A DNA stretch of 64,000 nt from Escherichia coli (GTDB lineage Bacteria; Pseudomonadota; Gammaproteobacteria; Enterobacterales; Enterobacteriaceae): NCBI RefSeq assembly GCF_013315695.1, contig NZ_CP054353.1. One strand, given 5' to 3'. Shown one piece after another: positions 1-11,283 of the stretch. The notes under the pieces are model-generated. The model saw only the letters and a program-made list of their open reading frames with translations, had not been told where the DNA came from and did not search any database. Each line of letters opens with the position of its first letter. The stretch's first letter is position 1. Both the position numbers and the translations under genes were made by a program.

Positions 1-1
1 G

Positions 2-1270
2 AGTAATGCCGTTGGTGGCTTGATCCTCGCGCAGCTGAAAGCGTTGGGCTGGACAGATAATTCCACCACTGCCACATTCTCAGCAATCACGACCGCCGGA
101 ATGTTTCTCGGTGCGCTGGTTGGCGGCATCATCGGTGACAAAACCGGTCGCAGAAATGCGTTCATCCTCTATGAGGCCATTCATATTGCCTCGATGGTGG
201 TCGGTGCTTTTTCACCGAATATGGATTTCCTTATTGCCTGCCGTTTTGTGATGGGCGTTGGGCTGGGAGCTTTACTGGTGACGCTGTTTGCTGGTTTCAC
301 CGAATATATGCCCGGTAGAAATCGCGGAACGTGGTCCAGTCGGGTTTCTTTTATTGGCAACTGGTCATATCCGCTCTGTTCATTGATTGCGATGGGACTC
401 ACGCCGCTGATTAGTGCAGAGTGGAACTGGCGAGTACAACTGCTTATCCCTGCAATATTGTCGCTTTTCGCTACGGCGCTGGCCTGGCGCTACTTTCCTG
501 AATCCCCGCGCTGGCTGGAATCGCGCGGACGGTATCAGGAAGCCGAGAAAGTCATGCGGAGTATAGAAGAAGGCGTCATACGCCAGACGGGTAAACCTTT
601 GCCGCCCGTGGTTATTGCTGATGACGGTAAAGCGCCACAAGCGGTGCCGTATTCAGCCTTACTGACAGGAGTATTACTGAAACGCGTGATATTAGGTTCT
701 TGTGTGCTGATTGCCATGAACGTTGTGCAGTACACACTAATTAACTGGTTGCCAACGATATTCATGACCCAGGGGATTAATTTAAAAGACTCGATTGTTT
801 TAAATACCATGAGTATGTTTGGCGCGCCATTTGGTATTTTTATTGCCATGCTGGTGATGGATAAAATTCCGCGTAAAACAATGGGTGTGGGGCTATTAAT
901 CCTGATTGCGGTGCTCGGATATATCTATTCACTGCAAACCAGTATGTTGCTCATAACGCTGATTGGTTTCTTCCTGATTACTTTCGTCTATATGTACGTT
1001 TGCTATGCCTCGGCAGTGTATGTCCCTGAGATCTGGCCGACAGAGGCCAAATTACGTGGCTCCGGTCTGGCGAATGCAGTAGGGCGAATCAGTGGTATTG
1101 CCGCACCTTATGCCGTTGCAGTGCTGCTCAGTAGTTATGGCGTAACGGGAGTCTTTATTCTTCTGGGGGCGGTTTCAATTATTGTCGCAATTGCTATCGC
1201 CACCATTGGAATTGAAACCAAAGGTGTCTCCGTTGAAAGTTTAAGTATTGATGCAGTAGTCAATAAATAA
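2..1270 (+). CDS. ydjK: MFS-family sugar transporter, 5' end truncated by window edge
   Basis: Open frame runs to the window start; hydrophobic multi-helix protein with a GRR/GR MFS loop motif; position upstream of ydjJ matches the E. coli ydj cluster. Confidence 0.85.
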   Translation, partial: SNAVGGLILAQLKALGWTDNSTTATFSAITTAGMFLGALVGGIIGDKTGRRNAFILYEAIHIASMVVGAFSPNMDFLIACRFVMGVGLGALLVTLFAGFTEYMPGRNRGTWSSRVSFIGNWSYPLCSLIAMGLTPLISAEWNWRVQLLIPAILSLFATALAWRYFPESPRWLESRGRYQEAEKVMRSIEEGVIRQTGKPLPPVVIADDGKAPQAVPYSALLTGVLLKRVILGSCVLIAMNVVQYTLINWLPTIFMTQGINLKDSIVLNTMSMFGAPFGIFIAMLVMDKIPRKTMGVGLLILIAVLGYIYSLQTSMLLITLIGFFLITFVYMYVCYASAVYVPEIWPTEAKLRGSGLANAVGRISGIAAPYAVAVLLSSYGVTGVFILLGAVSIIVAIAIATIGIETKGVSVESLSIDAVVNK

Positions 1271-1286
1271 TACTGGTGGATTCAAA

Positions 1287-2330
1287 ATGAAAAATTCAAA
1301 AGCAATATTGCAGGTGCCGGGCACAATGAAAATTATTTCAGCAGAAATACCTGTGCCTAAAGAAGATGAAGTTTTGATTAAAGTAGAATATGTCGGTATT
1401 TGTGGTTCAGATGTACATGGTTTTGAATCAGGCCCGTTTATTCCGCCTAAAGACCCAAATCAAGAAATTGGCCTGGGACATGAATGCGCCGGGACGGTTG
1501 TGGCTGTGGGAAGCCGTGTGCGCAAATTTAAAGCGGGGGATCGGGTAAATATCGAACCTGGCGTTCCTTGCGGTCACTGTCGTTACTGTCTGGAAGGCAA
1601 ATATAACATCTGCCCGGACGTTGATTTTATGGCGACACAACCTAACTACCGCGGCGCATTAACGCACTATCTGTGTCATCCGGAGAGCTTTACTTACAAA
1701 CTGCCCGACAATATGGACACGATGGAAGGGGCGCTGGTGGAGCCTGCCGCAGTCGGGATGCATGCCGCGATGCTGGCAGATGTTAAACCGGGTAAGAAGA
1801 TAATTATTCTGGGAGCGGGTTGTATTGGTTTGATGACGTTGCAAGCATGCAAATGCCTGGGAGCTACGGATATTGCCGTCGTTGATGTACTGGAAAAACG
1901 TCTGACAATGGCGGAACAGCTCGGCGCGACAGTGGTTATTAACGGCGCAAAAGAAGACACTATTGCACGCTGTCAGCAATTTACCGAAGAAATGGGCGCA
2001 GATATTGTTTTCGAAACAGCGGGTTCTGCGGTCACCGTTAAACAGGCACCTTATCTGGTAATGCGCGGCGGTAAAATTATGATTGTTGGTACTGTACCGG
2101 GCGATTCGGCAATCAATTTCCTCAAAATCAATCGCGAAGTCACTATCCAGACAGTATTCCGCTATGCCAATCGTTATCCGGTCACGATTGAAGCTATTTC
2201 CTCAGGGCGATTCGATGTGAAATCGATGGTGACACATATTTACGATTATCAGGATGTACAACAGGCATTTGAAGAGTCGGTTAACAACAAACGCAACATT
2301 ATTAAAGGCGTTATTAAAATTAGCGATTAA
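1287..2330 (+). CDS. ydjJ: Zn-dependent alcohol/polyol dehydrogenase (MDR family)
   Basis: 347-aa ORF with GHE..G and CGxC..C zinc-ligand motifs and a GxGxxG Rossmann motif. Confidence 0.9.
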   Translation: MKNSKAILQVPGTMKIISAEIPVPKEDEVLIKVEYVGICGSDVHGFESGPFIPPKDPNQEIGLGHECAGTVVAVGSRVRKFKAGDRVNIEPGVPCGHCRYCLEGKYNICPDVDFMATQPNYRGALTHYLCHPESFTYKLPDNMDTMEGALVEPAAVGMHAAMLADVKPGKKIIILGAGCIGLMTLQACKCLGATDIAVVDVLEKRLTMAEQLGATVVINGAKEDTIARCQQFTEEMGADIVFETAGSAVTVKQAPYLVMRGGKIMIVGTVPGDSAINFLKINREVTIQTVFRYANRYPVTIEAISSGRFDVKSMVTHIYDYQDVQQAFEESVNNKRNIIKGVIKISD

Positions 2331-2350
2331 TTAATACGGGAGAACAGAAT

Positions 2351-3187
2351 ATGCTCGCAGATATCAGATATTGGGAAAACGATGCCACAAATAAACATTA
2401 TGCAATTGCCCATTTTAACGTATGGAATGCAGAAATGTTGATGGGCGTTATCGACGCAGCCGAAGAAGCGAAATCACCGGTTATTATTTCTTTTGGTACA
2501 GGTTTTGTCGGGAACACCTCATTTGAAGATTTCTCTCACATGATGGTATCAATGGCACAAAAAGCAACGGTGCCGGTAATAACTCATTGGGATCATGGTC
2601 GGAGTATGGAAATTATTCATAACGCCTGGACTCATGGTATGAATTCATTAATGCGTGATGCTTCCGCATTTGATTTCGAAGAAAATATTCGTTTAACCAA
2701 AGAGGCTGTTGATTTCTTCCATCCGCTGGGTATTCCGGTAGAGGCGGAATTAGGGCATGTCGGTAATGAAACCGTTTATGAGGAAGCGCTGGCGGGCTAT
2801 CACTATACCGATCCTGACCAGGCGGCTGAATTTGTTGAACGTACGGGCTGTGACTCATTGGCTGTCGCCATCGGCAACCAGCATGGAGTTTATACGTCAG
2901 AGCCACAATTGAACTTTGAGGTCGTCAAACGCGTACGCGATGCTGTTTCTGTTCCGCTGGTTTTGCATGGCGCATCAGGGATCAGTGATGCCGACATTAA
3001 AACTGCAATTTCGTTGGGTATTGCGAAAATCAACATTCATACGGAGCTCTGTCAGGCCGCAATGGTAGCAGTGAAAGAAAACCAGGATCAGCCTTTCCTG
3101 CATTTAGAACGTGAAGTGCGTAAAGCTGTAAAAGAACGGGCATTGGATAAAATTAAACTGTTCGGTTCTGATGGCAAAGCGGAATAA
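2351..3187 (+). CDS. ydjI: class II (metal-dependent) aldolase, FBP/tagatose-bisphosphate aldolase family
   Basis: 278-aa ORF; length, sequence and position match E. coli YdjI. Confidence 0.9.
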   Translation: MLADIRYWENDATNKHYAIAHFNVWNAEMLMGVIDAAEEAKSPVIISFGTGFVGNTSFEDFSHMMVSMAQKATVPVITHWDHGRSMEIIHNAWTHGMNSLMRDASAFDFEENIRLTKEAVDFFHPLGIPVEAELGHVGNETVYEEALAGYHYTDPDQAAEFVERTGCDSLAVAIGNQHGVYTSEPQLNFEVVKRVRDAVSVPLVLHGASGISDADIKTAISLGIAKINIHTELCQAAMVAVKENQDQPFLHLEREVRKAVKERALDKIKLFGSDGKAE

Positions 3188-3191
3188 TGAT

Positions 3192-4139
3192 ATGGATAAT
3201 CTCGACGTTATTTGTATAGGTGCCGCTATTGTTGATATTCCATTGCAACCGGTCAGTAAAAATATCTTTGATGTGGATTCTTATCCTCTTGAAAGAATCG
3301 CAATGACCACCGGGGGTGATGCAATAAATGAAGCAACAATTATTTCTCGTCTGGGCCATCGCACAGCATTAATGAGTCGTATTGGTAAAGATGCCGCAGG
3401 GCAATTTATTCTCGACCATTGCCGCAAAGAGAATATTGATATTCAAAGCCTGAAGCAGGACGTCAGCATAGATACCTCAATTAACGTTGGACTGGTGACG
3501 GAGGATGGCGAGCGGACGTTTGTCACAAACCGTAACGGCAGTCTGTGGAAATTGAATATTGACGATGTTGATTTTTCGCGGTTTTCTCAGGCGAAATTAT
3601 TATCTCTGGCCAGTATTTTCAACAGTCCTCTATTGGATGGTAAAGCGCTAACAGAAATTTTTACGCAAGCTAAAGCCCAGCAGATGATTATCTGTGCCGA
3701 TATGATCAAACCGCGGTTGAATGAAACGCTGGATGATATTTGCGAAGCATTGAGTTATGTCGATTATCTGTTTCCTAATTTTGCCGAGGCAAAATTACTC
3801 ACCGGGAAAGAGACACTGGATGAAATTGCTGACTGCTTTCTTGCGTGCGGCGTAAAAACGGTGGTGATTAAAACGGGTAAAGACGGCTGCTTTATCAAGC
3901 GTGGTGACATGACGATGAAGGTGCCGGCGGTCGCAGGAATAACCGCCATCGACACCATTGGCGCGGGCGATAACTTTGCTTCAGGTTTTATTGCGGCACT
4001 GTTAGAAGGCAAAAATCTGCGTGAATGCGCACGCTTTGCCAATGCAACGGCGGCTATCTCGGTTCTAAGCGTCGGTGCCACCACCGGCGTAAAAAACAGA
4101 AAGCTGGTCGAACAATTGCTGGAAGAATACGAAGGATAA
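3192..4139 (+). CDS. ydjH: PfkB/ribokinase-family sugar kinase
   Basis: ORF 3171..4139 trimmed to the ATG giving 315 aa (MDNLDVICIGAAIVD); C-terminal GAGD anion-hole motif of ribokinase-like kinases. Confidence 0.88.
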   Translation: MDNLDVICIGAAIVDIPLQPVSKNIFDVDSYPLERIAMTTGGDAINEATIISRLGHRTALMSRIGKDAAGQFILDHCRKENIDIQSLKQDVSIDTSINVGLVTEDGERTFVTNRNGSLWKLNIDDVDFSRFSQAKLLSLASIFNSPLLDGKALTEIFTQAKAQQMIICADMIKPRLNETLDDICEALSYVDYLFPNFAEAKLLTGKETLDEIADCFLACGVKTVVIKTGKDGCFIKRGDMTMKVPAVAGITAIDTIGAGDNFASGFIAALLEGKNLRECARFANATAAISVLSVGATTGVKNRKLVEQLLEEYEG

Positions 4140-4148
4140 TGAAGGCAA

Positions 4149-5129
4149 ATGAAAAAGATACCTTTAGGCACAACGGATATTACGCTTTCGCGAATGGGGT
4201 TGGGGACATGGGCCATTGGCGGCGGTCCTGCATGGAATGGCGATCTCGATCGGCAAATATGTATTGATACGATTCTTGAAGCCCATCGTTGTGGCATTAA
4301 TCTGATTGATACTGCGCCAGGATATAACTTTGGCAATAGTGAAGTTATCGTCGGTCAGGCGTTAAAAAAACTGCCCCGTGAACAGGTTGTAGTAGAAACC
4401 AAATGCGGCATTGTCTGGGAACGAAAAGGGAGTTTATTCAACAAAGTTGGCGATCGGCAGTTGTATAAAAACCTTTCCCCGGAATCTATCCGCGAAGAGG
4501 TAGAAGCCAGCTTGCAACGTCTGGGTATTGATTACATCGATATCTACATGACGCACTGGCAGTCGGTGCCGCCATTTTTTACGCCGATAGCTGAAACCGT
4601 CGCAGTGCTCAATGAGTTAAAGGCCGAAGGAAAAATTCGCGCTATAGGCGCTGCTAACGTCGATGCTGACCATATCCGCGAGTATCTGCAATATGGTGAA
4701 CTGGATATTATTCAGGCGAAATACAGTATCCTCGACCGGGCATTGGAAAGCGAACTGCTGCCGCTATGTCGTGATAATGGCATTGTGGTACAGGTTTATT
4801 CCCCGCTAGAGCAGGGATTGTTGACCGGTACCATCACTCGTGATTACGTTCCGGGCGGCGCTCGGGCAAATAAAGTCTGGTTCCAGCGTGAAAACATGCT
4901 GAAAGTGATTGATATGCTTGAACAGTGGCAGCCACTCTGTGCTCGTTATCAGTGCACAATTCCCACTCTGGCACTGGCGTGGATATTAAAACAGAGTGAT
5001 TTAATCTCCATTCTTAGTGGGGCTACTGCACCGGAACAGGTACGCGAAAATGTCGCGGCATTGAATATCAACTTATCGGATGCAGACGCAACATTGATGA
5101 GGGAAATGGCAGAGGCCCTGGAGCGTTAA
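4149..5129 (+). CDS. ydjG: aldo-keto reductase (NADH/NADPH-dependent)
   Basis: 326-aa ORF with AKR-family features (IDTAPGY); follows ydjH as in E. coli. Confidence 0.9.
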   Translation: MKKIPLGTTDITLSRMGLGTWAIGGGPAWNGDLDRQICIDTILEAHRCGINLIDTAPGYNFGNSEVIVGQALKKLPREQVVVETKCGIVWERKGSLFNKVGDRQLYKNLSPESIREEVEASLQRLGIDYIDIYMTHWQSVPPFFTPIAETVAVLNELKAEGKIRAIGAANVDADHIREYLQYGELDIIQAKYSILDRALESELLPLCRDNGIVVQVYSPLEQGLLTGTITRDYVPGGARANKVWFQRENMLKVIDMLEQWQPLCARYQCTIPTLALAWILKQSDLISILSGATAPEQVRENVAALNINLSDADATLMREMAEALER

Positions 5130-5265
5130 ATACTCAACACGATTCACCTCTGTTTCTGTGAAAACTGTGATGAAAATCTGTGATTCAAACAGGTTATTTT
5201 GAAAGTAAACATCAATTATGCGATAATCGCGCTAATGTGATGTAAAAAGATACAGGGGTGTAATC

Positions 5266-6024
5266 GTGGCGGCAAAAGACAGGATTCAGGCAATTAAGCA
5301 AATGGTTGCCAACGATAAAAAGGTGACAGTCTCAAATTTGAGTGGGATTTTTCAGGTAACCGAAGAAACCATTCGCCGCGATCTTGAGAAGCTGGAAGAT
5401 GAAGGCTTTTTGACCAGAACCTATGGTGGTGCTGTTTTAAATACAGCGATGTTGACGGAGAATATCCATTTTTATAAGCGCGCTTCATCGTTTTATGAAG
5501 AGAAGCAGCTTATTGCACGCAAGGCATTACCCTTTATCGACAATAAAACCACCATGGCAGTCGATTCCAGTAGTACCGTAATGGAATTGCTCAAATTGTT
5601 ACAGGACCGTAGTGACCTGACGTTGCTAACCAACTCGGCGGAAGCGATTCATGTTCTGGCTCAGTCAGAAATTAAAGTCGTTTCAACGGGTGGGGAACTA
5701 AACAAAAATACACTTTCCCTGCAAGGAAGAATTACTAAAGAGATCATCAGCCGCTACCATGTCGATATTATGGTAATGAGTTGTAAAGGTCTTGATATTA
5801 ACAGCGGCGCGCTGGACTCTAACGAAGCGGAAGCTGAAATCAAAAAGACAATGATCCGTCAGGCGACAGAAGTTGCGTTATTGGTTGATCACTCTAAGTT
5901 TGATCGCAAAGCTTTTGTCCAGTTAGCTGACTTTAGTCATATTAATTACATAATAACTGATAAATCACCGGGTGCAGAGTGGATAGCATTTTGCAAAGAC
6001 AATAATATCCAGCTGGTGTGGTAA
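5266..6024 (+). CDS. ydjF: DeoR-family transcriptional regulator
   Basis: 252-aa ORF with an N-terminal HTH (TVSNLSGIFQVTEETIRRDLEKLE) and a C-terminal DeoR sugar-binding domain. Confidence 0.9.
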   Translation: MAAKDRIQAIKQMVANDKKVTVSNLSGIFQVTEETIRRDLEKLEDEGFLTRTYGGAVLNTAMLTENIHFYKRASSFYEEKQLIARKALPFIDNKTTMAVDSSSTVMELLKLLQDRSDLTLLTNSAEAIHVLAQSEIKVVSTGGELNKNTLSLQGRITKEIISRYHVDIMVMSCKGLDINSGALDSNEAEAEIKKTMIRQATEVALLVDHSKFDRKAFVQLADFSHINYIITDKSPGAEWIAFCKDNNIQLVW

Positions 6025-6140
6025 TTTAAGCACACGTTGTCAATATTATTTGTTCCTGCGCCTGGAAATAAAATGATGATAAAGATGCGGCAAGTGAATT
6101 TGCCGCAATTGCTACCTTTTTAGCAAATCCGAGGCACCTA

Positions 6141-7499
6141 ATGGAACAATATGACCAAATTGGCGCAAGACTGGACCGCTTGCCTTTGGCCCGGTTTCAT
6201 TATCGTATATTTGGTATTATAAGCTTTAGTCTGTTATTAACGGGTTTTTTGAGTTATTCAGGCAATGTTGTTTTAGCAAAGCTGGTAAGCAATGGATGGT
6301 CAAATAATTTTCTCAATGCCGCCTTTACCTCGGCATTAATGTTTGGTTATTTCATCGGCTCTCTTACCGGTGGGTTTATTGGTGACTACTTTGGGCGGCG
6401 CAGGGCTTTTCGCATAAATCTTCTCATCGTCGGTATTGCGGCAACAGGGGCCGCTTTTGTCCCTGATATGTACTGGCTCATCTTCTTTCGCTTCCTGATG
6501 GGAACAGGAATGGGGGCGCTGATTATGGTTGGCTATGCCTCATTTACGGAGTTTATCCCCGCGACGGTGCGTGGAAAATGGTCCGCGCGGCTCTCATTTG
6601 TCGGTAACTGGTCGCCCATGTTGTCTGCGGCGATAGGCGTGGTGGTTATCGCTTTTTTTAGTTGGCGGATAATGTTTCTGCTGGGTGGTATTGGCATACT
6701 GTTAGCCTGGTTTCTCTCAGGTAAATACTTTATTGAGTCGCCTCGATGGTTGGCGGGGAAAGGACAAATCGCAGGTGCAGAAAGCCAACTTCGTGAAGTA
6801 GAGCAGCAAATTGAAAGAGAGAAGAGTGTTCGTTTACCCCCGCTTACTTTGAATCAGAGCAACAGCAAGGCTAACATAATCAATGGTACTTTCTGGCTGC
6901 TGTTTAAAGGGGAAATGTTACGACGTACATTAGTCGCGATTACTGTTTTAATTGCAATGAACATTTCACTTTATACCATCACCGTATGGATACCGACCAT
7001 ATTTGTTAACTCCGGCATTGATGTTGATAAATCAATATTAATGACCGCTGTTATTATGATTGGCGCTCCGGTAGGGATATTTATTGCGGCATTAATTATT
7101 GATCATTTTCCTCGTCGATTATTTGGCTCTGCCTTACTTATTATTATTGCTGTGTTAGGCTATATCTATTCAATTCAAACTACAGAGTGGGCGGTTTTAA
7201 TCTATGGCCTGGTGATGATCTTCTTTTTATACATGTATGTGTGCTTCGCGTCGGCGGTTTATATCCCGGAACTTTGGCCAACGCATTTACGCCTGCGTGG
7301 TTCGGGTTTCGTTAATGCCGTCGGACGGATCGTCGCAGTCTTCACGCCCTATGGCGTTGCGGCACTATTAACGCATTATGGGTCAATCACGGTGTTTATG
7401 GTGCTTGGCGTGATGTTAGTGCTCTGTGCGCTGGTTCTCTCCATTTTTGGCATCGAAACGCGGAAGGTGTCGCTGGAAGAGATTTCTGAGGTGAATTAA
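6141..7499 (+). CDS. ydjE: MFS-family transporter
   Basis: 452-aa multi-helix ORF, paralogous in sequence to ydjK (GDYFGRRRAF / PESPRWL motifs). Confidence 0.9.
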   Translation: MEQYDQIGARLDRLPLARFHYRIFGIISFSLLLTGFLSYSGNVVLAKLVSNGWSNNFLNAAFTSALMFGYFIGSLTGGFIGDYFGRRRAFRINLLIVGIAATGAAFVPDMYWLIFFRFLMGTGMGALIMVGYASFTEFIPATVRGKWSARLSFVGNWSPMLSAAIGVVVIAFFSWRIMFLLGGIGILLAWFLSGKYFIESPRWLAGKGQIAGAESQLREVEQQIEREKSVRLPPLTLNQSNSKANIINGTFWLLFKGEMLRRTLVAITVLIAMNISLYTITVWIPTIFVNSGIDVDKSILMTAVIMIGAPVGIFIAALIIDHFPRRLFGSALLIIIAVLGYIYSIQTTEWAVLIYGLVMIFFLYMYVCFASAVYIPELWPTHLRLRGSGFVNAVGRIVAVFTPYGVAALLTHYGSITVFMVLGVMLVLCALVLSIFGIETRKVSLEEISEVN

Positions 7500-7551
7500 A
7501 TCTTTCGTTGATGGCATCAATTGCCAGATGTACCACTGACGTGTTTTATTT

Positions 7552-7582
7552 GGCCTACAATGGCAGTACAGAATTGTAGGCC
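7552..7582. terminator. inverted repeat (GGCCTACAAT..ATTGTAGGCC) between convergent ydjE and pncA; candidate bidirectional terminator
   Basis: 10-bp perfect inverted repeat read directly in the intergenic gap; no strong U-tract, so efficiency is uncertain. Confidence 0.45.
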
Positions 7583-7591
7583 AGCGTAAAA

Positions 7592-8233
7592 TTACTCCTG
7601 CGTTTCTTCCCAGTCTGCCAGCGTATATAGCGTTGCCCCAGCTGCTGACATCTCCATAAACGCGTGCGCACTGTCCTGTGGCTGGATATTTACGCCACGA
7701 CAACCATCGGTAATCACGTTCACCTTATAGCCTAACTGTAACGCGTCCAGCACGGTAAACTTCACGCAATAGTCAGTAGCCAGGCCCATAATGATCAATT
7801 CATCGATTTCATGATCGCGTAACCAGTCATCGAGCGCAGTTTTCTGCCGACGGCCGTTATCAAAAAAGGCACTGTAACTGTCAACTAAAGGATTTTCGCC
7901 TTTATGGAACACCGCTGCGATCGCTTTTTGCTTCAGTAACGGATGTAATTGTGCGCCTTCACTGTTCTGCACACAGTGATCGGGCCAGAAGGTTTGTGGC
8001 AAACCGTCGAGTTGGCCCGGCGTATAAGGCTCTACACCGTGCTGACTGGCAAAACTGCCGTGATTCGCCGGATGCCAGTCCTGACTGGCGATAACCGCTT
8101 CACCGCGCGACTGGCACCAGTCAATCAGGCGGTTAGCGACATCCACCGTACTGTCACCTTCCGGCACGGCGAGCGCGCCACCAGCACAGAAATCATTTTG
8201 TAAATCGACCAGTAACAGGGCGCGAGGGGGCAT
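7592..8233 (-). CDS. pncA: nicotinamidase / pyrazinamidase
   Basis: ORF 7592..8251 trimmed to MPPRALLLVDLQNDF (213 aa); isochorismatase-fold motifs. Confidence 0.93.
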   Translation of the reverse strand: MPPRALLLVDLQNDFCAGGALAVPEGDSTVDVANRLIDWCQSRGEAVIASQDWHPANHGSFASQHGVEPYTPGQLDGLPQTFWPDHCVQNSEGAQLHPLLKQKAIAAVFHKGENPLVDSYSAFFDNGRRQKTALDDWLRDHEIDELIIMGLATDYCVKFTVLDALQLGYKVNVITDGCRGVNIQPQDSAHAFMEMSAAGATLYTLADWEETQE

Positions 8234-8243
8234 TGCAGTCTCC

Positions 8244-9260
8244 TTAATCATCCGGCGTCAGTTCGCCACGCAGGTTTTGGCTCATGGCCTTGCGAATGGT
8301 TTCAGTATCTAGTTCCTGGCTAAGCAGGTAATGCAGTTTGGTTAGTGTGGCTTCTACAGTCATATCTGCACCGCCAATAACGCCGGCATGGGCGAGGGCG
8401 TTACCGGTGGCATAACCACCCATATTCACTTTACCGGACATACATTGTGTCAGGTTGACTACCACAATACCGCGATCGCTGGCTTCTTGTAATTCTTGCA
8501 GGAAGGCTTTGTTTTGTGGCGCATTACCCACGCCATATGAGCGCAGAATCAATGCTTTCACCGGTTGGCGCAGAAAATTGCGCACGACGTCAGCAGAAAT
8601 CCCTGGATAAATCGTCACTACGCCAATCGGTTGTGGGGTGATTGGATGAACGATCAATTCCCCTTCACCGTGCGGGGCGGGTGGTGTATTCAAACGACGA
8701 ATATGGATACCTGCTTCCAGTAACGGAGGAAGGTTTGGAGAGGCAAACGCATCAAAACCATCGGCATGGGCTTTGGTGGTACGGTTGCCACGATAAAGTC
8801 GATTATTAAAAAAGAGAGTTACTTCGTTGATAGGATAATTCGCCGCAACGTACAACGCATTCAGCAGATTAATTTGTCCGTCAGAGCGTAACTCAGCTAG
8901 CGGGATTTGTGACCCTGTCACAATAACCGGTTTACCGAGATTCTCGAGCATGAACGACAGCGCAGAGGCGGTATACGCCATCGTGTCGGTGCCGTGCAGA
9001 ATGACAAAACCATCATAGTCGTCATAATGCGCTTTAATATCTTCAGCAATATGCTGCCAGTCTTCTGGCGTCATATCAGAAGAATCCATCAATGGCGTAT
9101 ATTCATGAATGGTGAAATCTGGCATCTCCGGGCGATGGAATTCCGGCATCAGCGCCAGTTGGCGCTGTAGATGACCTGACACCGGAATATAACCCTGCTC
9201 GGAACGCTGCATCCCGATGGTCCCGCCCGTGTAGGCGACGTAAATTGATTTCTTTTGCAT
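8244..9260 (-). CDS. ansA: cytoplasmic L-asparaginase I
   Basis: 338-aa ORF with the asparaginase N-terminal TGGTIG threonine motif. Confidence 0.95.
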   Translation of the reverse strand: MQKKSIYVAYTGGTIGMQRSEQGYIPVSGHLQRQLALMPEFHRPEMPDFTIHEYTPLMDSSDMTPEDWQHIAEDIKAHYDDYDGFVILHGTDTMAYTASALSFMLENLGKPVIVTGSQIPLAELRSDGQINLLNALYVAANYPINEVTLFFNNRLYRGNRTTKAHADGFDAFASPNLPPLLEAGIHIRRLNTPPAPHGEGELIVHPITPQPIGVVTIYPGISADVVRNFLRQPVKALILRSYGVGNAPQNKAFLQELQEASDRGIVVVNLTQCMSGKVNMGGYATGNALAHAGVIGGADMTVEATLTKLHYLLSQELDTETIRKAMSQNLRGELTPDD

Positions 9261-9379
9261 GATATTGATATGAATGATATCGAAAGAGCAAAAGTATATA
9301 CGTGAGGCAGGGGGAGCGCACCTGATACTATGCGGATAAGGAAATATGGGGCGAGACAGCGGGAAGAGGATTCGTCGAC

Positions 9380-9414
9380 GTAAAAAGTAATGTGGCCGAC
9401 GATCTGTCGGCCAC
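9380..9414 (-). terminator. rho-independent terminator candidate downstream of sppA
   Basis: Perfect 9-bp stem GTGGCCGAC/GTCGGCCAC followed on the minus strand by a T-rich run. Confidence 0.55.
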
Positions 9415-9426
9415 TTAGTACATGAC

Positions 9427-11283
9427 TTAACGCACGTTGGCGCAGGTCAGGCAAAACGCATAACGGTTTTGTGGGTCGTTAAACGCGGCCAGCTTGTCGC
9501 TTTCACTTTTAACGGTAGAGGCTACCGAGGCCAGCGGTGCAGGTAACATGGCCTGGAACGCATCTGGCAACATTGCCCGGACAGAACCAGACATGTTGTC
9601 CATCACTTTGTCGAAGAAGGTCGGTTCATCAACGTAGTATTCCAGATGCCACTGTTTCACTTTTGCCAGCTCTGCTGCTTTGGCGACCGCATCATCGAAA
9701 TCCCCGAGACTATCGACCAGCCCGTTAGCTTTTGCATCCTGACCGGTCCAGACGTGGCCCTGGGCGATTTTATCAATCTGCTCCGGCGTTGAATGACGCG
9801 CATCAGCAACCAGCGTGATAAAGCGTTTATAGCCATTCTCAATGCTTAACTGCATCATCTGCTGCGCTTCCGGCGGCAGTGCCCTGGTGATAGAAACATC
9901 CGCCAGCGGTGAAGTTGAGACACCATCAGTATGAACACCAATCGAATCCAGACTATTTTCTACGGTGGTGATCACGCCGAAGATACCGATAGAACCGGTC
10001 AGGGTGCTGGGGTTAGCCACAATGTAATTAGCTGGCGTGGAAATCCAGTAACCACCAGATGCCGCCATGCCGCCCATCGATACAACCACAGGCTTACCCG
10101 CTGCCCGGGCTGCTGCCAGTTCAGCGCGAATCACTTCAGACGCGGTAACGCTGCCGCCTGGGCTATTAACACGCAGGACAATCGCTTTCACTTTCGGGTC
10201 AAGGCGAGCGTCGCGGATTTGTGCCGCAGTGGTATCACCGCCAACATTCCCCTGAGTTTCCTCGCCATCCATAATTGCGCCATTAGCGAAGACGACTCCG
10301 ATGCTGTCACCGGTATCTGCCGGCGTTTTCAATGCGTAATCGTAATAACTGATGGCGCGATAATTTTTATCAGTCTTGCTCCAGCCGAACTCTTTGGTCA
10401 GAGTTTTTTCGATTTCGGCACTCGATGCCAGTGCATCGACCAGCTTGTTTTCCAGCGCATATTTCGCGGTATCGCCACCGGTTTTGGTTAAACCCTCAAG
10501 CAACCCTTGCGCGCCAGGGAATACCTGCTGAGCAGGGATCTGCCGGTTAGCGGCAACAGTATTCAGATAGTTTTGCCACAGCTCACCAATCCAGCGGCTG
10601 TCAGCTTCGCGGGCTGCCGGCGACATATCATCACGAATAAACGGTTCAACGGCAGATTTATACGTACCCACGCGGAACACATGGGTGGAAACTTTCAGCT
10701 TATCCAGCAACGATTTGTAGTACAGACCGTTGGTGGCAAAGCCGTGCAGATCCACCACGCCTTGCGGTGACAGCCAAATTTTATTGGCGAAACTGGCGAG
10801 ATAATATTGCCCCTGGCTGTAGTTCTCGCCAACGGCATAAACCGGTTTCCCGCTGTCACGAAACTCTTTCAGAGCTTTGCCGATGTACTGCATAGACGGC
10901 TGGTCGCCGCCTGCGAAGTTTTTCAGATCCATCACAATACCGGTGATATTGCGGTCGTCCTTCGCCTGGCGAATGGTGTTGACGATATCAAACAGTGAGT
11001 TTTCCTGCAGACGATCGGAACTGGCACCAAGCAGCTGGCGGCTTAATTTACTAAACCGCTGAGAACTGTCGGGTTTATCGACGATCACACCAGAAATGTC
11101 CAGCAGCAGTGCGCCACGACTGGCCGTTTCTTTCGAATCACCACCACTGACCTGCATCCAGATCCCCACACCAACCAGCACGAGAAAAATAAAGAACAGG
11201 TTAAGTACCATTTCACGGACGAAATTCAGCAGACGCCACGTCCATTTAAAAAATCCGGCAATAAATCGCCAAAGGGTTCGCAT
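9427..11283 (-). CDS. sppA: signal peptide peptidase A (protease IV)
   Basis: ORF trimmed to MRTLWRF (618 aa); N-terminal membrane anchor and tandem S49 peptidase domains. Confidence 0.93.

Follow-up and report, generated by a model that had tools for sequence, protein, structure and literature searches.

The ydj locus of Escherichia coli as a candidate inducible pathway for a carboxylate-bearing sugar

Results

The first 7499 positions of a 64,000-nucleotide stretch of Escherichia coli DNA (NCBI RefSeq assembly GCF_013315695.1, contig NZ_CP054353.1; the whole stretch is referred to here as the window) are the distal seven-eighths of the E. coli ydj locus (ydjLKJIHG, ydjF, ydjE). Taking protein families, comparative genomics and the published record together, we lean towards the view that ydj, normally silent, encodes an inducible route for the catabolism of a sugar bearing a carboxylate, likely of seven to nine carbons (C7-C9), that is available in the animal gut and is broken down to yield dihydroxyacetone phosphate (DHAP). 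The conserved core of the cluster comprises one importer, an aldo-keto reductase, two polyol-type dehydrogenases, a kinase, a DHAP-type aldolase and a DeoR regulator, with no isomerase or dehydratase, and we propose an oxidoreductive scheme because it is the simplest one that uses every core enzyme. According to this scheme, the major facilitator superfamily (MFS) protein YdjK would bring the acidic sugar into the cell, where YdjG together with YdjJ and YdjL would interconvert its aldose-acid, aldonate and 2-keto forms. Such an oxidoreductive 'isomerisation' can be likened to the fungal pairing of xylose reductase with xylitol dehydrogenase. YdjH would then phosphorylate the primary hydroxyl adjoining the keto group and YdjI would split the resulting keto-acid phosphate to give DHAP together with an aldehyde-acid of shorter chain, which might be dealt with by other pathways or by YdjG, acting at this point instead of, or as well as, in the earlier step. 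On the model of IolR, FucR and GlpR, YdjF would keep both ydjL and its own promoter repressed and would be released on binding the phosphorylated product of YdjH. We infer the roles given here to YdjJ, YdjL, YdjG and YdjK, the repression by YdjF, the nature of its effector and that of the natural substrate; in vitro, activity of YdjH and YdjI on long keto-uronates (summarised in PMC9602453) and of YdjG as an aldehyde reductase (references in PMC6561318) has been reported.

Protein families and reported activities are consistent with a kinase-plus-aldolase route

Genes were placed using the list of open reading frames (ORFs) and the annotation of a 100%-identical E. coli chromosome (strain MSB1_4I; window 1-9000), and over the same positions the DNA is 95-99% identical to almost all other complete E. 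coli genomes. A preliminary description, made from the letters of this stretch, had recognised two MFS transporters, a Zn-dependent dehydrogenase, a class II aldolase, a PfkB kinase, an aldo-keto reductase and a DeoR protein, and every one of these family calls was verified. The class II (metal-dependent) ketose-phosphate aldolase YdjI (2351-3187) matches the ketose-bisphosphate aldolase subfamily TIGR00167 (Pfam F_bP_aldolase) over its full length, with 324.8 bits against a cut-off of 215.6, as well as the structure 'YdjI aldolase' (PDB 6OFU, E=1.5e-187). It scored under the equivalog cut-offs for fructose-bisphosphate aldolase (FBA) and tagatose-bisphosphate aldolase (TIGR01859, 246 against 343; GatY NF009374, 239.5 against 383; KbaY NF009375, 186 against 542). 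The PfkB-family sugar kinase YdjH (3192-4139) matches PDB 3H49/3IN1 (E=2.6e-205), and its translation contains AIDTIGAGDNF, the PfkB DTxGAGD catalytic/anion-hole motif. All PfkB equivalogs of known specificity (IolC, RbsK, KdgK, FruK, LacC, FrlD) remained under their cut-offs for YdjH, the top NCBIfam match being IolC (5-dehydro-2-deoxygluconokinase, TIGR04382) with 141 against a cut-off of 300.

YdjJ (1287-2330), a Zn-dependent medium-chain dehydrogenase of the sorbitol-dehydrogenase / ketose-reductase type, matches PDB 5VM2 (E=5e-231), followed by ketose reductase 1E3J (2e-75) and sorbitol dehydrogenase 1PL6 (2e-66), and the nearest other structures include L-arabinitol and xylitol dehydrogenases. 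Both the catalytic-zinc sequence GLGHECAG (GHE motif) and the structural-zinc CxxCxxCx7C cluster CGHCRYCLEGKYNIC are present in its translation. YdjL is 28% identical to YdjJ and has threonine dehydrogenases as its nearest relatives, with no equivalog cut-off reached; the two dehydrogenases fell under the cut-offs for Tdh, IdnD, GatD and IolM (for Tdh, 204.6 for YdjJ and 217.3 for YdjL against 380). The DeoR/GlpR-family regulator YdjF (5266-6024, GTG start) is composed of HTH_DeoR (PF08220, residues 6-60, E=5e-17) and DeoRC (PF00455, residues 77-233, E=8.5e-50) and scored under all NCBIfam equivalogs (GlpR, AgaR, SrlR, FucR, DeoR, UlaR); that it is a repressor is presumed from the behaviour of its family. 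The two MFS proteins, YdjK (1-1270, 5'-truncated, with its first 110 nt, or first 36 codons, upstream of position 1) and YdjE (6141-7499), are paralogous as originally proposed, being 44% identical over 455 residues, and the top NCBIfam match of both is the aromatic acid/H+ symporter family TIGR00895, at sub-threshold scores.

In the section of PMC9602453 that summarises Huddleston & Raushel 2019, YdjH and YdjI are said to favour long-chain monosaccharides that end in a carboxylate; of the YdjI substrates the best, L-glycero-L-galacto-octuluronate, is stated there to have 'no natural abundance', and the functions of the ydj operon are called 'only partially determined'. The same summary bears out the earlier statement that in-vitro work on the two enzymes pointed to long-chain sugar-acid substrates and, with the confirmed families, supports the interpretation of the cassette as a kinase-plus-aldolase route. 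Likewise, the preliminary description had maintained that no natural growth substrate is established, and our full-text literature search found no paper giving the ydj cluster one. The feature it described is real, correctly located and correctly interpreted, but already known, so that the description restates a known open question.

The NADH-dependent aldo-keto reductase YdjG (4149-5129), for which B. subtilis YhdN (1PZ1) and IolS (1PYF) are the nearest proteins of known structure, passes the equivalog NF049922 (MethglyxlRedYdjG) with 627.6 bits against a cut-off of 550, in line with the NADH-dependent methylglyoxal reductase activity for which PMC6561318 gives references. This activity could be taken to mean that ydj is a stress or detoxification module, in which YdjG and the dehydrogenases would remove reactive aldehydes, methylglyoxal among them, by reduction, with the MFS proteins acting as exporters of what is formed, and which would explain the reported links of ydj to tolerance of acid, osmotic stress and antibiotics: ydj genes are enriched among lactic-acid-resistant E. 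coli (PMC9602453), ydjK overexpression has been reported to better growth in high salt, and an untargeted metabolomics screen tentatively ties YdjE to export of 3-phenyllactate and acetophenone (PMC10971958). We nevertheless consider this explanation highly improbable, as it leaves the sugar kinase, the DHAP-forming aldolase and the DeoR sugar-phosphate sensor without a detoxification role, yet these are the most constantly co-inherited components, and as phylogroup confounds the link with acid resistance, with ydjI carried by 96.6% of phylogroup A isolates as against 29.9% of those in B1 (PMC9602453).

The gene order of the cluster is kept across phyla

A scan with YdjI, using one genome per species, yielded 148 relatives; the best 80 were retained, and all locus counts below refer to these 80. 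About 60 of them lie outside Enterobacterales and represent at least four phyla. Carriers include Lachnospiraceae, Mediterraneibacter, Blautia, Clostridium, Oscillospiraceae, Erysipelotrichaceae, Veillonella, Megamonas and Anaerococcus, the actinobacterial Atopobiaceae and Parafannyhessea, one Synergistaceae genome and the bee-gut genus Gilliamella, and the sources are mostly mouse, human, chicken, rabbit or rumen metagenomes. When the E. coli proteins were mapped onto the non-enterobacterial loci, most of these had kept the order L-K-J-I-H-G-F, and such conservation across at least four phyla argues that the cluster acts as a single unit. Identity to E. coli is 69-87% for YdjL, 73-87% for YdjI, about 50-75% for YdjK and 40-62% for YdjF; in the majority of these lineages YdjL and YdjI both stay at 77-87%. 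We considered recent horizontal transfer as the source of the identities near 85% and rejected it, given that synonymous sites are saturated and that YdjK and YdjF are just 50-55% identical. High protein identity at saturated synonymous sites indicates instead that the transfers are old and that YdjL and YdjI are exceptionally constrained. In a neighbour-joining tree of five concatenated proteins, Enterobacterales formed one clade, and Actinobacteria, Synergistaceae and Gilliamella fell inside a much deeper Firmicutes diversity. Genes resembling ydjE were seen outside Enterobacterales only in Veillonella, in C. puniceum and, weakly, in Gilliamella. In one Lachnospiraceae genome (locus L023, 107-4790), a second, divergent set lies 5' of the ydj-like operon and looks like a paralogous pathway, with a kinase (41% identity to YdjH), an aldo-keto reductase (32%) and two Zn dehydrogenases (50% and 28%).

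Accessory genes outside Enterobacterales bear on the nature of the substrate

In 28 loci an AlsE-like 3-epimerase gene is found, usually between ydjL and ydjK, whose product reaches 254.5 bits on the AlsE equivalog (cut-off 271), and in 28 loci a DctA/GltP/SstT-like (DAACS) transporter gene is found, usually 3' of ydjF; examples of these accessory genes are located at L044 2030-2722, L023 6304-6999 and L040 10731-12095. Neither gene was present in E. coli or in any other enterobacterial locus sampled. Loci that have no ydjK carry, directly 3' of ydjF, a Liv/HAAT-type ATP-binding cassette (ABC) system with a Peripla_BP_6 binding protein, or else a CUT1-type system with SBP_bac_1 proteins. Peripla_BP_6 proteins are encoded beside ydjF in Herbinix (L044 9074-10399) and in Lachnotalea glycerini DSM 28816 (L049 13883-15232), and SBP_bac_1 proteins of the CUT1 variant at L050 5503-7176 and 12230-13930. 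In five ydjK-less loci the operon runs on from ydjF into Liv-type ABC permeases and ATPases (e.g. L054 13864-20834 and L057 13867-20831) and further into genes for an FGGY (rhamnulokinase-like) kinase, a FucA-like aldolase/epimerase, a xylose-isomerase-like TIM-barrel protein and a Peripla_BP_6 protein. This additional set of kinase, aldolase and isomerase could process a C4-C6 cleavage product of YdjI in a second catabolic round. A D-2-hydroxyacid dehydrogenase gene is nearby in four loci. Genes for 5-oxoprolinase, an aminotransferase and RraA-like proteins, seen near some loci, were considered as parts of the pathway and rejected, being neither consistently adjacent nor consistently co-oriented.

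Several of these findings support a substrate with a carboxylate. YdjK and YdjE best match aromatic-acid/H+ symporters, 28 loci add a DctA/GltP/SstT-like transporter, ydjK-less loci carry Liv/HAAT-type ABC systems with Peripla_BP_6 proteins, and the cluster occurs in Veillonella, Synergistaceae and Anaerococcus. These three groups ferment few or no sugars. That the substrate is also long is supported by the published specificity of YdjH and YdjI together with the extra kinase, aldolase and isomerase of the five loci.

The main rival to an acidic sugar is a rare neutral compound, for example a polyol like a hexitol or heptitol, or a ketose resembling allulose, sorbose or tagatose. YdjJ and YdjL would oxidise the polyol, the resulting ketose would be phosphorylated by YdjH, its C3 would be corrected by an AlsE-type epimerase (encoded within the cluster in Firmicutes and elsewhere in E. 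coli) and YdjI would cleave the phosphate or bisphosphate, the in-vitro preference for a carboxylate then being mimicry of a distal phosphate. This proposal accommodates the AlsE-like protein and its place between ydjL and ydjK, the proximity of YdjJ to ketose reductase and to sorbitol, L-arabinitol and xylitol dehydrogenases, the membership of YdjI in the ketose-bisphosphate aldolase subfamily and the use of a CUT1 sugar ABC transporter by some variants. It is at odds, however, with the published specificity, which in the summary of PMC9602453 favours carboxylate ends. The accessory transporters of dicarboxylate/amino-acid and Liv types likewise speak against it, as do the presence of the cluster in taxa that ferment few or no sugars and the single kinase of the conserved core, since a bisphosphate would need outside help. 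Moreover, we know of no E. coli carbon-source screen that flagged ydj for any polyol. On balance we judge a neutral substrate unlikely.

Putative regulatory sites point to more than one transcript

Regulatory regions were compared in an enterobacterial alignment of 14 loci (genera or species). Upstream of ydjF (regulatory region 5146-5227, + strand), two blocks are conserved across all 14, namely ACCTCTGTTTCTGTG (5146-5160) and the operator-like ATCTGTGATTCA (5176-5187), and AAATCTGTGATTCAGACA is likewise among the conserved elements there. They are followed by a sigma-70-type promoter, TTGAAA-17-GATAAT with an extended -10 TG (5199-5227), which matches the consensus at 10 of 12 positions and is the best promoter-like site in window 1-7700. 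Upstream of ydjL, which together with its 370-bp promoter region precedes position 1 of the window, the same alignment revealed, within positions 4660-4747 of locus L001, a conserved near-consensus promoter (TTGACC-17-AAGTAT) and the conserved sequence TTTGTGATCTGAGTTGTGAAAT with a perfect CRP left half-site. Directly 5' of the ydjL -35 hexamer (L001 4696-4712) is ATCTGTGTTTTA(C/A)AGAT, which is related to the operator-like element of ydjF. The ATCTGTG element common to the ydjL and ydjF upstream regions is a candidate YdjF operator, as judged from sequence comparison; no motif of this type was seen upstream of ydjE.

Crp activation is typical of catabolic operons. For ydj, activation by Crp has been predicted, and the operon is named ydjLKJIHG, without ydjF or ydjE, in PMC8085971. 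In addition, Rho-dependent termination has been reported in the ydjL 5' region (bioRxiv 2020.07.18.207399), and the ydjL promoter is reported to be turned on during transit through the mouse gut, where it was among the two most consistent triggers in healthy animals.

A hairpin in the ydjF-ydjE spacer (6086-6107, listed on the + strand) was predicted by RNAalifold on nine enterobacterial sequences with seven pairs, two of which have compensatory changes; the terminator-like scan placed it on the - strand. It is probably a ydjF terminator or a structure of the ydjE leader. In Citrobacter and Klebsiella, the stem of the ydjF-ydjE hairpin is longer (ATGGCG...CGCCAT). A scan of window 1-9500 at the Rfam gathering thresholds matched no family.

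The idea of a single ydjKJIHGFE transcription unit did not hold up against the conserved ydjF promoter, the ydjF-ydjE hairpin and the fact that ydjE is mostly missing outside Enterobacterales, and the seven genes in the window are thus probably not one transcript. The earlier description had spoken of a complete cassette in one orientation with short spacers. All seven genes are on the + strand in both the ORF list and the annotation. Spacers are short from ydjK to ydjG (K-J 16, J-I 20, I-H 4 and H-G 9 bp), but G-F and F-E measure 136 and 116 bp. The window does not hold the complete cassette: missing beyond its edge are ydjL with the promoter of the operon and the opening 36 codons of ydjK; the position of ydjL off the window had been anticipated and agrees with the annotated identical chromosome. 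As for ydjE, it may not belong to the pathway: its membership is doubtful because of its near-absence from non-enterobacterial versions of the cluster and its tentative link to 3-phenyllactate export. Downstream of it are the convergent genes pncA, ansA and sppA, and in the spacer between ydjE and pncA we read from the sequence a palindrome, GGCCTACAAT...ATTGTAGGCC (7552-7582), which resembles a bidirectional terminator.

The locus is maintained under purifying selection

Intact ydjI-ydjH (coverage of at least 80%) was present in 4228 of 5426 complete E. coli genomes (~78%), and the whole 11.8-kb segment in 4262 of 5425. For all eight genes, ratios of nonsynonymous to synonymous divergence (dN/dS) between E. 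coli and E. whittamii, Citrobacter braakii or Klebsiella oxytoca were 0.009-0.07 at dS values of ~0.5-3. The ydj genes are clearly maintained under strong purifying selection and are not decaying, and the low dN/dS together with the intact cluster in 4228 genomes indicates that they are functional.

These data bear directly on the possibility that in E. coli ydj is a cryptic, trimmed remnant of a Firmicutes-type pathway which, having neither the epimerase nor the second transporter type, supports no growth. Some 21-22% of complete E. coli genomes are without the cluster and several carry insertion sequences (IS) in it, G+C is 42-48% in the cluster and 50-56% in the flanks, the reported Rho-dependent termination precedes ydjL, and the enterobacterial versions have no AlsE-like and DAACS genes, all of which would fit a remnant. 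Against this, loss of function cannot be reconciled with dN/dS of 0.01-0.07 in every gene at dS of 0.5-3, different genera have retained the promoter and operator-like blocks, the ydjL promoter is reported to fire in the gut and synteny at the yeaC/pncA site is kept in Klebsiella and Citrobacter. We give the remnant explanation very little credence.

The cluster occupies the same site between yeaC and pncA in K. pneumoniae and in most other enterobacterial loci. From the neighbour-joining tree we had first read transfer among enterobacteria, a reading that we rejected because most enteric loci share the msrB-yeaC and pncA-ansA-sppA flanks, a pattern better accounted for by vertical descent with losses. 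Plasmid carriage was also rejected as evidence of mobility, all plasmid matches above 90% identity being chromosome-sized or carrying chromosomal housekeeping genes. For example, L083 (NZ_CP076548.1, K. pneumoniae 'plasmid p2', linear, 221 kb) has gapA, msrB, ansA and sppA around ydj and looks like a misassigned piece of chromosome. Most E. coli genomes without the cluster retain the flanks alone (msrB-yeaC and pncA-ansA). In such strains (e.g. DETEC-S565, L082 1320-1480 compared with L001 4419-13591), ~120 bp of unrelated DNA separate yeaC from pncA, which is not a simple deletion scar, and the only sequence there in common with ydj carriers is the palindrome GGCCTACAAT...TGTAGGCC near pncA, the stem of which is partly kept. 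Several E. coli lineages have IS insertions inside ydj, among them ISVsa5 (IS4-like), an IS3-family element (O157:H7) and ISKpn26 (IS5-like). In Klebsiella, genes for a GH18 glycoside hydrolase and yajD are situated between yeaC and ydjL.

Discussion

Several points weigh against our preference for ydj as a pathway for an acidic sugar. There is no known growth substrate or inducer, and the compound that serves best in vitro is not known to occur naturally. AlsE, the epimerase family represented in 28 loci, uses ketoses phosphorylated at the far end, which would suit a neutral ketose or a bisphosphate no less than a uronate, and one variant of the cluster has a CUT1-type sugar ABC transporter. 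Transporters of the CUT1 type normally carry neutral sugars. TCDB lists YdjE as a sugar porter, and the sole published YdjG activity is that on methylglyoxal (references in PMC6561318). Finally, the motif ATCTGTGWTTYA is not enriched in the window (one match against 0.98 expected), so that the support for the candidate operator is phylogenetic conservation.

We think it possible, though distinctly less probable than the pathway assignment itself, that ydj is an ancient, cross-phylum and largely gut-associated unit whose C7-C9 acidic sugar has so far escaped recognition. Such a sugar would come from the diet, the host or microbes, for instance as a piece of a complex plant pectin or of a glycan from the bacterial envelope, and what E. 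coli carries would be a trimmed descendant of a fuller Firmicutes operon. If a C7-C9 acidic sugar is indeed the substrate, this would constitute a new nutrient niche common to E. coli, Lachnospiraceae and the largely non-sugar-fermenting Veillonella. Among the complete-looking catabolic operons of E. coli K-12 for which no substrate is known, ydj is one of the best documented. The gut-switched promoter, the strong selection and the sharing with dominant gut anaerobes suggest that its substrate is probably a real gut nutrient that metabolic models omit. The comparative results, that is the orthologous operons and their accessory genes, were not met in the literature consulted and suggest a route to the substrate, as they offer ABC binding proteins that can be screened for ligands, cultivable carriers with a narrow diet such as Veillonella, Schaedlerella arabinosiphila DSM 106076 and Clostridium puniceum DSM 2619, and accessory enzymes that constrain the chemistry of the substrate.

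Comparison with known systems

The locus in the window is the same as the ydj cluster of E. coli K-12 (Huddleston & Raushel, Biochemistry 2019; YdjI 6OFU, YdjH 3H49/3IN1). Its proteins match the sequences of the crystal structures with E values of 1e-187 to 1e-231, and gene order and flanks agree with the annotated chromosome. There is no difference of substance, the DNA being ~98% identical to K-12-like strains; the window holds neither ydjL nor the 5' end of ydjK.

The late steps of inositol catabolism (Iol) in B. subtilis involve the PfkB kinase IolC and the FBA-type class II aldolase IolJ, which phosphorylate a keto-acid bearing a free primary hydroxyl beside its keto group and cut it into DHAP and an aldehyde-acid, while the DeoR-type repressor IolR senses the kinase product and the system further includes the aldo-keto reductase IolS and the MFS transporters IolT and IolF. 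The proposed ydj pathway follows the same logic: IolC is the top match of YdjH, IolS is near YdjG, and YdjJ and YdjL match IolM. All ydj scores on Iol equivalogs are, however, far under the cut-offs (IolC, 141 against 300). The gene families that recur in the 80 loci are only L, K/E, J, I, H, G and F, the epimerase and the transporters, and no counterparts of IolE (dehydratase), IolD (ring-opening hydrolase) or IolB (isomerase) are among them. With these enzymes missing and the Iol scores under cut-off, we rejected ydj as a myo-inositol pathway.

The als system of E. coli includes AlsE, the D-allulose-6-phosphate 3-epimerase, which is resembled, with a score just under the cut-off, by the product of the additional gene that 28 loci outside the enterobacteria carry between ydjL and ydjK; no such gene is in the window or in any enterobacterial locus sampled. 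The gat and aga systems share with ydj a class II aldolase family (GatY/KbaY) and a DeoR-family regulator (GatR/AgaR), and YdjI matches AgaY (PDB 1GVF) with E=4e-49. They differ in that the reported ydj substrates, as summarised in PMC9602453, are longer and end in a carboxylate. Furthermore, ydj has neither a phosphotransferase system (PTS) nor a GatZ/KbaZ partner, and YdjI scores under the GatY and KbaY cut-offs.

In the E. coli routes for L-idonate (IdnD/IdnO/IdnK) and L-galactonate (LgoD), a Zn dehydrogenase oxidises the penultimate carbon of an aldonate, giving a 5-keto-aldonate (hexuluronate). This is the type of dehydrogenase reaction that we propose for YdjJ or YdjL, although their scores on IdnD (175.6 and 117.4, respectively) are well separated from the cut-off of 469. 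The routes would then part: the idonate and galactonate pathways go on to reduce or dehydrate the product, whereas the pathway proposed for ydj would phosphorylate it and cleave it by an aldolase.

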